From the IMG/VR virus record IMGVR_UViG_2706794667_000008, positions 1 to 4,330 of that record: a DNA stretch of 4,330 bases; one strand, given 5' to 3'. Under the pieces are notes generated by a model. The model saw nothing but the letters and a program-made list of their open reading frames with translations, was not told where the DNA came from and did no database searches. The DNA comes from a virus. Lineage: Duplodnaviria > Heunggongvirae > Uroviricota > Caudoviricetes. This document shows positions 539 through 4,330 of this stretch, piece by piece (the first letter of the stretch is position 1; each line of letters starts with the position of its first letter). The translations under genes were made by a program, and so were the position numbers.

Positions 539-851
539 TGAAGTGGCACACTGAATTTGGCCACCTGAACAGAGGTGATATGCTCACCTCAGAACAACAC
601 AGGTGCTCCAATGAAAAAAAGAAATTTTAGCGCAGAGTTTAAACGCGAATCCGCTCAACTGGTTGTTGACCAGAAATACACGGTGGCAGATGCCGCCAAA
701 GCTATGGATGTTGGCCTTTCCACAATGACAAGATGGGTCAAACAACTGCGTGATGAGCGTCAGGGCAAAACACCAAAAGCCTCTCCGATAACACCAGAAC
801 AAATCGAAATACGTAAGCTGAGGAAAAAGCTACAACGCATTGAAATGGAGA
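539..851 (+). mobile_element. IS911 (IS3 family) left-end fragment, about 313 bp, truncated internally
   Basis: Begins TGAAGTGGCACACTGAATTTGGCCACC, recognised as the IS911 left inverted repeat, followed by the orfA reading frame; similarity stops at 851/852 where the sequence becomes phage endolysin on the opposite strand. No right end present. Confidence 0.85.
611..850 (+). pseudogene. IS911 orfA (transposase OrfA, HTH) truncated after codon 80
   Basis: Translation [80 protein letters not shown] matches IS911 OrfA from memory; lacks the C-terminus, the frameshift window and orfB. The 575 start in the ORF track is an upstream in-frame extension. Confidence 0.85.
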
Positions 852-1059
852 CTGCTTCGGTATACGTTTTACCGAGCATGATGTCTTTTCCGGTGTGTCC
901 GTGACATACAGTCCATACACCAATGATATCTTTGTATGGTATGTAGCTGACACCTTCCAGACCATCGTTACCACCTGGGCCAGTGATTAACACAGATGCT
1001 ATAGCAACAGCCCCACCACCAATAGCAGCTGCAACAGCCTTGCGTAATGATGGCGACAT
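852..1059 (-). pseudogene. SAR endolysin (phage 21 R / RrrD-like lysozyme), N-terminal 69 codons only, fused to IS911 antisense sequence
   Basis: [69 protein letters not shown] resembles the N-terminus of lambdoid SAR endolysins; after codon 69 the frame reads into IS911 antisense (VSISMRCS...) until a stop at 760. Start overlaps the holin stop (TAATG). Confidence 0.8.
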
Positions 1060-1274
1060 TATTCACCTCTCGCAGCCTTACGCTTGTCTTCTCTTATTTT
1101 GAAATACAGATTTGTCAGATAAGTCAGAAGCCCCAGAAGCAGACTTCCCAGCACACCAATCGCAGCCCACTGTGATGGACTGACCTGATCCAACCACTGC
1201 AAAAACCAGTAGCCGGCACTGCCGGCGGAGGTGCCGTAGGCAATGCCTGTTGATATTTTTTCCATCTGATACAT
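1059..1274 (-). CDS. Class II holin (pinholin), phage 21 S / EssD-like, 71 aa
   Basis: [71 protein letters not shown]; two predicted TM segments, charged C-terminus, Met1/Met4 dual-start motif; sits immediately upstream of and overlapping the endolysin start. Confidence 0.9.
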
Positions 1275-1414: not shown

Positions 1415-1954
1415 AGATCGCGTAGCATTCTTAATTCATGAGGAACTTTACCCGCCAGCAATCTGAGTAGCGAAAGCTGTTCATCCCCAATGTTTTTGCT
1501 GGCGGGTCCTTTTTTCTACGGTCCTCCTCCCCGGAGGGGGGCATTTCATTATTTTTCTAATCGTTACTGGTGAGAAGGCGGAAGAAAAAGCCAGTTCTTC
1601 GCCCCTAAATAACAGCATGATTCCAGTCCATGCAAAATCTGATTTCCAGCTCACACATACCGAGCGCTGTACAAAAAACCGCCAGCCAAGGCAGTTAAGA
1701 GTGTGTTCCCGGGGTTTGCTTAGAATATTTTGTAAGTTGTCCGAAGAGATATTTACAACACCAGAATGATGAATCATCAGTCCCCTGCCAGAGGTTCACT
1801 ACGTAACCTGACCGACAATGCACCATTCTGGTGCTGAAAAAAGAGCACTGGAACTGCAACAAAACAACATCACAGAACAGGAGATGGTAAGGAGTCAGAC
1901 ATTCCCACACAATATTGTGTCAGTGCAAATAACAACCTTCGTCTCAAATCTCGC

Positions 1955-2029
<75 letters not shown>

Positions 2030-2032
2030 ATA

Positions 2033-2108
<76 letters not shown>

Positions 2109-2110
2109 GC

Positions 2111-2187
2111 TGGCCCACCACCGAGGACTCGAACCTCGCACCGTCAACTTAGAAGGTTGATGCTCTATCCGGATGAGCTAGTGGTGG
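2111..2187 (-). tRNA. tRNA-Arg (anticodon UCU)
   Basis: CCACCACTAGCTCATCCGGATAGAGCATCAACCTTCTAAGTTGACGGTGCGAGGTTCGAGTCCTCGGTGGTGGGCCA: anticodon stem TCAAC/GTTGA, loop CTTCTAA, T-loop TTCGAGT, 7-bp acceptor with an unusual C1-G72 pair. Confidence 0.7.
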
Positions 2188-2188
2188 T

Positions 2189-2265
2189 TGGTGGCCCTTG
2201 CTGGACTTGAACCAGCGACCTGGCGATTATGAGTCGCTCGCTCTGACCAACTGAGCTAAAGGGCC
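2189..2265 (-). tRNA. tRNA-Ile2 (anticodon CAU, ileX/ileZ-like); elongator Met not excluded on anticodon alone
   Basis: GGCCCTTTAGCTCAGTTGGTCAGAGCGAGCGACTCATAATCGCCAGGTCGCTGGTTCAAGTCCAGCAAGGGCCACCA: loop CTCATAA; acceptor and T-arm closely resemble E. coli ileX as recalled. Confidence 0.75.
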
Positions 2266-2361
2266 GGAGGCAGAATAATAACCATATGTCATCACATCTG
2301 CAAACTCATCTGACCACCAGCACGTTTAACGTCCTGTGCCGTTTTTCAGGTATAAAAAAAC

Positions 2362-2387
2362 CCGCATAAAGCGGGCTCTTTCAAATG
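2362..2387 (-). terminator. Intrinsic terminator directly downstream of the Q-like gene (tR'-like late terminator)
   Basis: On the minus strand: GCCCGC, loop TTTAT, GCGGGT, then a 7-T run; 68 bp downstream of the Q stop, upstream of the tRNA array. Confidence 0.8.
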
Positions 2388-2454
2388 TCCATGTCTGCTA
2401 TTCGCCTCGCGGTACAGCTTTGCGAAGCGTACAAGAATTGAAGCAGTTTTTACG

Positions 2455-3009
2455 TCAAAAAGCAATAACTTTTTTCTCTATACCAAAAGCCATAACCATT
2501 GGTTTGTACAAAATAAATTCTGCCACCTTTAGCCAATGCTCAATGCGTCTTTCACAGGTTCTTAAACTCCATTTCGGGTGTGCATCATTCAGCAGTTCAG
2601 CCATTTTGCGTTTGGTCATCCCCCGCCCCTCATACCGTTGCCGAAGGACGCTAATCAATCCTGGATGCTCTGCCAGCACCTCACTTATGACCCGATCAAT
2701 ACATAACGCCTCTGCATCAGTACAATGCGCCAGCCAGCTCTTTTGCTTACCGTTAATCATATCCCGCAAAAAAGCCTCAAGTTCAGACTTGTTCAGACCT
2801 GCTTTTTTCATCCTCCGGAGCGCCTCGTTAATTGCCGTTTTTGTCAGCTTTTTAGAGGTCAACATCAGGTTAAACATATTCCCCGTCTTACCGCCACCAA
2901 TATACGACCAGCGCCCCCACATACGTAGTTTTCCCTGAATCCAGACACTTTCCAGCGTGGTGAGACGAAGGTGTTCTCCGCTTTTTCCTGTATTCGTTGG
3001 GTAAATCAT
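2455..3009 (-). CDS. Putative late-gene antiterminator Q-like protein, 184 aa
   Basis: Starts MIYPTNTGKSGEHLRL... at ATG 3009 preceded by AGGAGGG; the 3129 start in the ORF track is an unsupported extension overlapping the upstream gene. Position between the nin-region genes and the tR'-like terminator matches lambdoid Q; family assignment is from context and recollection, not alignment. Confidence 0.6.
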   Translation of the reverse strand: MIYPTNTGKSGEHLRLTTLESVWIQGKLRMWGRWSYIGGGKTGNMFNLMLTSKKLTKTAINEALRRMKKAGLNKSELEAFLRDMINGKQKSWLAHCTDAEALCIDRVISEVLAEHPGLISVLRQRYEGRGMTKRKMAELLNDAHPKWSLRTCERRIEHWLKVAEFILYKPMVMAFGIEKKVIAF

Positions 3010-3296
3010 AAATATCCCTCCTTTCTCCAGATTTCTTGTGTGCGAAAAACACCTTCTGCATGCATCAGGCGTAATTCTTCTTTGGTGTAATCGCTGGTTT
3101 TTACCCGCCCGTCGATTAAATCGTGGCACGAGCTACAGGCAATCGCTGCCTGCATATCGTGTGGCTTTATCGCTGTTCCGCACGTTCCCGCCAGTCGGTA
3201 ATGCGCCAGCACAGACGTTTCCGGATCGTGATTGCAGTAGCCAGGAATTCTGACGGTGCACATCTGCCCCCGCGCCGCTTTACGTAAATCCACCAT
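3006..3296 (-). CDS. YbcO-like lambdoid nin-region protein (DUF1364 family, Cys-rich), 96 aa
   Basis: MVDLRKAARGQMCTVRIPGYCNHDPETSVLAHYRLAGTCGTAIKPHDMQAAIACSSCHDLIDGR... shares the DLRKAARG / VRIPG-CN / PETSVLAH / CGT / IACS-CHD pattern recalled for DLP12 YbcO. Stop overlaps the Q start (ATGA). Confidence 0.75.
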   Translation of the reverse strand: MVDLRKAARGQMCTVRIPGYCNHDPETSVLAHYRLAGTCGTAIKPHDMQAAIACSSCHDLIDGRVKTSDYTKEELRLMHAEGVFRTQEIWRKEGYL

Positions 3297-3895
3297 TACG
3301 CAAACTCCAGCAGCTGCGCGGCCACATTTTCGACTTGTTCCGGAGAGGAAAATTTACGGAACAGAATCCAGTTCCACAGCACATTCAGAACAGATTTATA
3401 AACCTGCTGAAACTCGGTTTCGTCCATATTCGCAAAAGCGATGGATTTTGCCCGACGCCCGCGGCTACCGTCCGGATAAAAATGTTCGGTGTAAAATCCA
3501 GCCTGAATGGTTACCCACTCGCGAAAAGCCTCAAACGACTTTAGCAATGCCGTATCCCGGGTTCTGCGTGTCGCAACTGTATTCAGATATTGCTCTGCGG
3601 CTTCGCTCAGAGCTGGCGTATGTTCCCGACCTACTGATTCGCACAGGTAATCAACGAAACCAGACAGCAGTTCTCGTTCGCGAGGCGTGATCGCCCCACC
3701 GACCGGAGTCCAGTAATCGAATCCCAGTTGCAGGAGTTTGAAAAAACGCTTGTGGAATGCGTAGTTACGCACACGCTTAAAGTCTGCGTGTATCCACTCA
3801 CCTGTTTTGATTTGATGCAGAAAATCGCAACTCTCCGGCGTCGCCGGGAGAAGTAATCCGGAAGAGGTTTGTTTGATCAGTTGTATATGCGCCAT
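3296..3895 (-). CDS. Lambdoid nin-region protein, probably DUF1367 family, 199 aa
   Basis: ORF MAHIQLIKQTSSGLLLPATPESCDFLHQIKTGEWIHADFKRV... with GGAGAA upstream of ATG 3895; stop overlaps the next start (TAATG). Real-gene call is firm; the family name is from memory of prophage annotations and needs a profile search. Confidence 0.55.
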   Translation of the reverse strand: MAHIQLIKQTSSGLLLPATPESCDFLHQIKTGEWIHADFKRVRNYAFHKRFFKLLQLGFDYWTPVGGAITPRERELLSGFVDYLCESVGREHTPALSEAAEQYLNTVATRRTRDTALLKSFEAFREWVTIQAGFYTEHFYPDGSRGRRAKSIAFANMDETEFQQVYKSVLNVLWNWILFRKFSSPEQVENVAAQLLEFA

Positions 3896-3966
3896 CGTAG
3901 TTCTCCGCTGGCGCAGTAGAATGGGTGTTCAGCCCGTTATGTAGTATACCAGAATTAATGCCAATA

Positions 3967-4179
3967 CTAACAGGATGCTCTGACTCGCAATTCATCCAGC
4001 AGTTTATCATTTCCCATAATGTCACTTACCCTCATCGGTAAAAAAATTGCCTTTCGACCATTACGATACATCATTGATTTTTTGGTTTCAGGGAAGTAAT
4101 CCATTTCGACTATAACTGACAGGTCATCACGACGTATGACTGCGTATTTACTACTAAATAGTTTCTTTATTTTTTCCAC
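3967..4179 (-). CDS. Hypothetical small protein (70 aa), AT-rich orphan; GTG start
   Basis: GTG at 4179 preceded by GGAGG with a 4-nt spacer; AT-rich codons (AAA, ATA, CTA). No homolog recognised. The frame stays open upstream to a stop inside IS1 (4246..4248) with no other start codon, so it may be either a small moron gene or the tail of a gene cut by IS1. Confidence 0.4.
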   Translation of the reverse strand: MEKIKKLFSSKYAVIRRDDLSVIVEMDYFPETKKSMMYRNGRKAIFLPMRVSDIMGNDKLLDELRVRASC

Positions 4180-4230
4180 GATGCCTCCAGGTTTATAAGT
4201 ACAAACGGTTATATCAACATAGAGACAAAA

Positions 4231-4330
4231 GGTGATGCTGCCAACTTACTGATTTAGTGTATGATCGTGTTTTTGAGGTGCTCCAGTGGCTTCTGTTTCT
4301 ATCAGCTGTCCCTCCTGTTCAGCTACTGAC
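4231..4330 (+). mobile_element. IS1 left end (inverted repeat plus start of insA), runs off the window
   Basis: GGTGATGCTGCCAACTTACTGATTTAGTGTATGAT... recognised as the IS1 terminal inverted repeat and leader; one difference from the form I recall (tgatCgtg versus tgatGgtg). Confidence 0.85.
4286..4330 (+). CDS. insA: IS1 InsA, N-terminal 15 codons (partial, continues beyond window)
   Basis: GTG GCT TCT GTT TCT ATC AGC TGT CCC TCC TGT TCA GCT ACT GAC translates VASVSISCPSCSATD, the recalled InsA N-terminus. Confidence 0.8.
   Translation, partial: MASVSISCPSCSATD

Follow-up and report, generated by a model that had tools for sequence, protein, structure and literature searches.

A comparable layout is known from the nin region of phage lambda, in which a terminator is followed by a series of small genes, the last of which is the antiterminator gene Q. 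In lambda, Q expression becomes independent of N either through the nin5 deletion or through byp mutations, which create a promoter. Other prophages also have a small ORF of ~70–85 aa with a hok or dinI cassette on one side and the genes that lead to Q on the other, namely Rem in the Qin prophage of K-12 and STM2621.1n in Gifsy-1. The small-protein family PHROG 1813 (WP_000411312 / WP_000411315) is encoded upstream of a series of DUF1367, YbcO and Q genes. Two properties of the insertion sequence IS1 are relevant as well. Adjacent deletions made by IS1 or Tn9 leave the element without direct repeats (PMC9330008). According to PMC8764528, which refers to Prentki et al. 1986, the inverted repeat of IS1 contains an outward -35 box that forms hybrid promoters, and the same source gives such a promoter for the afaA gene of E. 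coli ST131.

The window, by which we mean the whole stretch of 4,330 nt that was analysed, stems from a locus that follows the lambda layout in that a terminator precedes a block of small genes ending in Q. However, we identified neither N nor a nut system and the genes are not homologues of those of lambda, except for the NinB-like assignment by PHROGs. In comparison to the described PHROG 1813 loci, the protein and its position upstream of DUF1367, YbcO and Q are the same, whereas the native spacer in front of the gene has been replaced by IS1. Overall we consider it quite likely that the 70-codon ORF at this junction is a complete gene, that IS1 was inserted with an adjacent deletion in a prophage of the Shigella sonnei type, and that the gene is natively expressed in an early transcript. 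Table 1 gives the coordinates of the features. The limits of the Q gene were mapped from the gene calls in one of the matching loci (L010).

Table 1. Features of the window with position, strand and the evidence on which each entry is based.
Feature	Position	Strand	Basis
IS911-type orfA fragment with IS end	~539-851	+	bracketed by 540-bp repeat
Lysozyme gene truncated at IS911-type IS	~852-1059	-	bracketed by 540-bp repeat
Class II holin gene, intact	1059-1274	-	bracketed by 540-bp repeat
tRNA cluster, four genes (CAU, Arg-UCU, Thr-UGU, Gly-UCC)	1955-2265	-	
Q-type antiterminator (DUF1133) gene	2455..3009	-	Pfam PF06576 E=2.4e-107, PF06530, phrog_753
YbcO/DUF1364 putative nuclease gene	3006..3296	-	Pfam PF07102 E=7.7e-45
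DUF1367 gene (NinB/Orf-like family per PHROGs)	3296..3895	-	Pfam PF07105 E=2.9e-96, phrog_319
70-aa gene, PHROG 1813 small-protein family	3967..4179	-	ORF list, phrog_1813 match, annotated in uninterrupted prophages
Remaining native spacer, 51 bp	4180..4230	-	L010 vs L007 comparison
Shine-Dalgarno GGAGG	4184..4188	-	sequence; 4 nt upstream of GTG
-10-like TATGTT in native flank	4216..4221	-	promoter scan; 17 bp from TTGGCA
IS1 first 100 bp (IRL end)	4231..4330	+	100% identical to end of complete 768-bp IS1 in L005, L010
Outward -35-like TTGGCA in IS1 left inverted repeat	4239..4244	-	promoter scan; 8 bp from IS1 tip
TAA closing extended frame	4246..4248	-	translation; 15 nt inside IS1

An exact look-up of the 70-aa protein led to chromosomal loci that were recovered from public assemblies. 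Positions 1954–4330 of the window are 100% identical to two of these loci (L005 and L010) in the sequence comparison, and there is one mismatch to S. sonnei 53G (L009, HE616528) and one differing base in a further S. sonnei chromosome (L013, CP060117). The identities to L005, L010 and 53G identify the window, as judged from sequence, as an IS-riddled remnant of a lambdoid prophage of the S. sonnei type. This prophage is strongly degraded: it contains an IS911-type fragment and a truncated lysozyme gene, and several IS elements are present in L005, L009 and L010. The exact-protein look-up was also the route by which the junction between IS1 and its flank was located; an exact-match search for this junction in one-genome-per-species contigs gave no match. 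The 335-bp stretch without IS1 was found in 175 complete E. coli genomes. In L013 the stretch that begins at the IS1 end and includes the ORF, DUF1367, YbcO, Q and the tRNA genes occurs twice within 10 kb (439–2815 and 9850–12226), a double copy that presumably goes back to an IS-mediated duplication.

The 70-codon ORF starts with a GTG at 4179–4177 and ends with a TAG. Its GC content is 37%, compared to 45–52% for the three downstream genes, and exactly 51 bp (4180–4230) separate its start from IS1. The anatomy given in the first-pass annotation (IS1 from 4231, a distance of 51 bp, GTG start, GGAGG, an AT-rich 70-aa ORF and a frame that is open into IS1) holds in every point. That annotation had also proposed a profile search with the translation, and this search placed the protein in a family: it matched phrog_1813 with E=1.6e-32, residues 2–70 aligning with profile positions 13–81 of 91. 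The family is small. A profile search of 1.84 billion representative proteins returned only 27 representatives, which range from 28 to 114 aa. According to the alignments, D19, F29, P30 and R39 are invariant or nearly invariant, and G41 is common to the close E. coli/Shigella set. The 70-aa protein shows the core motif (D19, F29-P30 and MYR-x-G at 37–41) as well as the typical length of ~65–85 aa, and an identical protein is found in many E. coli and Shigella genomes. By this match the ORF is a member of a known but uncharacterised family.

Between divergent members of the family dN/dS lies at 0.15–0.27, a range which indicates that PHROG 1813 is under purifying selection. Together with the profile match and the distant homologues of the same length, these values place the ORF beyond chance. 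In uninterrupted E. coli prophages the NCBI pipeline annotates the same 213-nt CDS as a hypothetical protein (WP_000411312 / WP_000411315; regions inspected), and the CDS is also annotated in a deposited genome of an isolated phage. The two differences between the ORF and its nearest E. coli copies are both synonymous. On these comparisons the ORF is a real, complete and conserved small prophage gene. In annotation it should be kept as an intact gene and does not call for a pseudogene flag.

We also compared the starts of the family members. At DNA level, a GTG start with a purine-rich Shine-Dalgarno sequence was read in seven out of eight members. GTG rather than ATG is thus used (L015, L016, L017, L019, L020, L022 and window 4177–4179) even though identity between the proteins is only ~30%, which suggests that weak initiation of translation has been conserved in PHROG 1813.

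The structure of the 70-aa protein was predicted with confidence as four beta strands and a C-terminal helix. A fold comparison of the predicted model gave no match, searches of Pfam and PADLOC gave no hits and a sequence search of the PDB gave no significant match. The sole match in NCBIfam was to the small alarmone synthetase YjbM, with E=0.0023 and 17.7 bits against a cut-off of 320. We rejected this candidate, as it appeared in the PDB only at E ~1 and vanished when the family profile was used. The position of the gene is the sole clue to its function. Based on it, our low-confidence guess is that the product may be a small binding or adaptor protein that acts, together with the recombination genes and Q, early in lytic development. 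As a conserved protein of the lambdoid early region with a predicted fold without known relatives, PHROG 1813 is a reasonable small target for functional work. Some 45-aa versions of the family which begin at an internal Met26 (MDYFPE...; P0014 and P0016) are labelled "bacteriocin" in NCBI records, and no support for this label was found in our analyses. A further record, PP818812.1 ('Actinobacillus phage vB_Apl-pPE4', L023), was deposited as a phage of Actinobacillus pleuropneumoniae and carries a block of hok, small gene, DUF1367, YbcO and Q. The identity between the small protein encoded there and the one of E. coli and Shigella is 96%, which is unexpectedly close for a Pasteurellaceae phage.

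The gene context is as conserved as the protein. DUF1367 is the next co-oriented gene, 71 bp downstream of the ORF, and Q is the last gene of the co-oriented block. In all loci examined the small gene lies just upstream of NinB, DUF1367 or RusA, and the block leads to Q wherever Q is annotated. Often the small gene lies directly behind dinI; in distant phages the distance to dinI is 37–55 bp. Judged from this gene order, the 70-aa ORF is the first gene of a nin-type block that consists of the small gene, DUF1367, YbcO and Q. The four tRNA genes follow directly downstream of Q, and the identity of L005 and L010 to the window stops exactly at the end of tRNA-Gly (1954). The CAU tRNA was classified as Met by ARAGORN but is annotated as tRNA-Ile in an E. 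coli relative (L001). Similar tRNA clusters are located downstream of Q in other lambdoid prophages.

At the right end of the window we find the terminal inverted repeat of IS1, GGTGATGCTGCCAACTTACTGAT, followed by the insA frame. Read from the sequence, this frame starts with a GTG at 4286 and runs away from the ORF and off the end of the window. The promoter scan also reported an inward promoter-like site in the IS1 end at 4238–4265. In L005 and L010, where the element is complete, the called genes match the Pfam families of InsA (PF03811, PF12759) and of DDE_Tnp_IS1 (PF03400). The element of L010 covers 9182–9949 (768 bp). To its left lies the T-tract of an intrinsic terminator, AACCCGTTTCGGCGGTTTTTTT, and to its right the sequence continues with TTTTGTCTCTATGTT... 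toward the ORF. The junction of element and flank reads GGCAGCATCACC/TTTTGTCTCTATGT, followed by T in the IS1-bearing copies. Just beyond IS1 the terminator is preceded by a hok gene and a bona fide sok RNA (118 bits).

The comparison with uninterrupted loci accounts for the short distance between IS1 and the ORF. In intact relatives a native spacer of ~185 bp, which is conserved among E. coli prophages, separates the hok/sok terminator from the ORF. The complete IS1 of the S. sonnei lineage is placed exactly at the T-tract of this terminator, and 134 bp of the spacer with a GC content of 28% are deleted. There is no target-site duplication of 8–9 bp at the IS1 of L010, as the 9-bp flanks GGTTTTTTT and TTTTGTCTC differ. 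The missing duplication fits an adjacent deletion or a recombination between IS1 elements and is no argument against the identity of the element. The locus agrees with the known IS1-mediated adjacent deletions in that IS1 has its full length, the duplication is missing and a contiguous 134 bp are gone on one side. In our case the deletion is deduced from the comparison with relatives. IS1 would thus have been inserted at the T-tract of the terminator, and an adjacent deletion would then have removed the 134 bp together with the native stop codon of the extended frame. Recombination between two IS1 copies would be a different order of events with an identical picture. The rearrangement itself is a textbook IS1 insertion with adjacent deletion and as such an ordinary event.

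The first-pass annotation had taken IS1 as the boundary of the nin region and the early and replication genes as absent on this side. This does not apply to the junction, as in the matching S. sonnei genomes hok/sok and further prophage genes follow directly beyond IS1 and strain 53G retains replication and immunity genes. L005 and L010 have lost the latter at other IS elements, which lie further upstream. As placed by these loci, IS1 is internal to the prophage, with the hok/sok cassette on one side and the nin-type block on the other. An annotation should therefore describe it as an insertion inside the prophage that is accompanied by a deletion of 134 bp next to it, and not as a boundary.

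Two other origins of the ORF have to be weighed against an intact first gene of the block. The earlier annotation had left open whether the ORF is a small gene which has lost its upstream context or what remains of the C-terminal part of a larger gene. The former is borne out, since 134 bp of the native spacer are gone. The latter, a truncated pseudogene of a larger gene interrupted by IS1, seems at first sight to agree with the reading frame, which continues open for 22 codons upstream into IS1, so that the extended frame has 92 codons plus stop. The PHROG profile also aligns with 10 further residues of this extension, and an 83-aa version that starts at an upstream GTG is present in the databases (P0006). 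Yet in the uninterrupted copies an in-frame TAA is located 21 codons upstream of the GTG and 83 aa is the longest conceivable product; the frame is open into IS1 because the deletion associated with IS1 took out this native stop. Even the alternative GTG is located downstream of the junction with IS1. Divergent homologues (23–37% identity) start within a few residues of the 70-aa start and do not have the extension; they have their own GTG and an SD-like purine run at the equivalent place. Within the 13-codon extension three out of four observed substitutions are non-synonymous while GGAGG is kept. As the uninterrupted prophages have the 70-aa CDS and no representative is longer than 114 aa, the remnant reading is refuted and we regard it as extremely improbable. 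The other origin, also suggested earlier, is that of an independent moron with a promoter of its own in the deleted AT-rich 134 bp. In its favour are the low GC content of the ORF (37%) compared to its neighbours, its place behind a terminator, the conservation of the spacer among E. coli prophages and a weak 8/12 candidate in the deleted part, GTGAAA-17-AATATT, that was found by eye. Against it, no sigma-70-like site in the native 185-bp spacer passed the simple consensus scan for the ORF strand, and the terminator scan found no terminator between the ORF and DUF1367. A moron is expected to bring its own promoter upstream and its own terminator downstream; that neither was found is a weak negative, as both scans look for simple consensus matches. 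For the same reason a weak native promoter in the deleted spacer is possible. In the distant phages with the gene 37–55 bp behind dinI, neither a promoter nor a terminator was found between dinI and the small gene in the two phages scanned. Finally, the gene is syntenic, co-oriented with its neighbours and holds a conserved place in the nin-type block, unlike a moron. The moron claim is thus unsupported and we consider it unlikely.

As the first gene of the block, the ORF would by analogy with lambda normally be read as part of the early-right transcript, through antiterminated read-through of the hok/sok terminator. A near-identical terminator, AACCCGCTTCGGCGGGTTTT, is located downstream of hok in E. 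coli and upstream of a dinI cassette with a LexA box in Citrobacter phage Chris1 and Salmonella phage SPN3UB (L016 1631–1650, L014 ~2560–2580 and L007 ~9793–9815). Its distribution suggests that these phages and prophages share a mosaic boundary in front of the small gene. We also considered a LexA-regulated promoter of the dinI type in the E. coli spacer. This was rejected, as the shared terminator is present but the spacer lacks a LexA box and is not homologous to the upstream regions of dinI.

In the window the native route of transcription would be cut off by the terminator and IS1. The first-pass annotation had suggested that outward transcription from the IS1 end could drive the ORF. This is plausible in the form of a specific candidate, TTGGCA-17-TATGTT, in which the -35 lies in the IS end, the -10 in the flank, the spacing is within 16–18 bp and the promoter faces the gene. 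The layout is the same as at afaA, where the -35 in the inverted repeat is followed after 17 bp by a -10 in the flank and a co-oriented gene (PMC8764528). Here, however, the -10 matches at only 4/6 positions, its last T was apparently gained by a point change and there is no known selected phenotype. According to the table of variable columns, the hexamer is TATGTT in all four IS1-bearing loci and TATGTG in all eight uninterrupted loci that were read, and none of 131 uninterrupted E. coli copies was identical to the T version of the flank. The change from G to T at 4216 is one of two lineage-specific changes in 335 bp, the other being synonymous. It makes the highly conserved last T of the -10 and at the same time destroys the alternative upstream in-frame GTG. 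We regard the link between this change and the promoter as suggestive but post hoc. The IS1 -35, the 17-bp spacer and the altered flank hexamer would together make up a new promoter for the block, which would otherwise be silent. Placed behind the terminator, such a promoter would free Q expression from antitermination. That the candidate is a functional hybrid promoter for the small gene, and possibly for the three genes behind it, is a tentative reading to which we give somewhat less than an even chance. In a remnant which still has a holin gene, constitutive expression of Q might do harm, and this speaks against a strong promoter.

The same anatomy is compatible with a gene that is now silent, where IS1 is polar, the terminator stands upstream, the promoter match is a coincidence and the relic is too young to have decayed. 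We put this at close to an even chance. The overall match of the candidate is 9/12, and the scanner yields ~1.6 such sites per shuffle of the region; by our own estimate the chance of such a match per IS1 insertion into AT-rich DNA is roughly one in eight. The promoter-like match is thus within chance expectation. The prophage is also heavily degraded, and the intact ORF is a poor guide to present selection in a recent clone such as S. sonnei. What speaks against silence is that the IS1 end has a -35 box documented as a component of hybrid promoters, that the spacing is at the optimal 17 bp and that the lineage-specific G to T change creates the last T of the -10. Should the promoter work, it would be a possible new instance of a known mechanism and a natural case in which the antiterminator operon of a prophage has been rewired by an IS element, found in Shigella, whose genome decay is driven by IS expansion. 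In its strongest form, IS1 and the point change would have left a dead S. sonnei prophage which constitutively expresses the small gene, DUF1367, YbcO and Q and, via Q, the tRNA cluster. This we consider unlikely. If true, it would be a natural analogue of the byp and nin mutations of lambda and part of the prophage would have been domesticated.

Several look-alikes were compared with the small gene and rejected. Rem occupies the same slot after hokD and is also a small ORF, but shows no similarity (BLASTP E=9.4). STM2621.1n of Gifsy-1, a small ORF between dinI and DUF1367, is not homologous (hhalign probability 0.1%). Both are positional counterparts only. The lead to IsrK/orf45 of Gifsy-1 arose from a sub-threshold isrK hit by hok and from the 45-aa PHROG 1813 database fragments. 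The Rfam hit reached 30.5 bits in L007 (E=1.8e-4) and 16.5 bits in L010 compared to a gathering score of 50. It covers 9734–9815 in L007 and 9100–9181 in L010, between the hok stop codon and the terminator, and probably just reflects the hairpins with which the hok mRNA ends. In Gifsy-1 itself orf45 is found downstream of Q, where it starts at ~nt 107 of the isrK transcript and overlaps anrP; this place differs from that of the small gene.

The left 1.9 kb of the window are arranged differently from L005, L010, L009 and L013. None of the S. sonnei loci with a match to the right half of the window shows its layout of repeat, IS911-type fragment, lysozyme gene and holin gene. The repeat is a direct repeat of 540 bp at positions 1–540 and 1281–1820, for which the repeat tool reported 300 nt as exact; the rest was compared by eye, with ~3 mismatches near 491–496.
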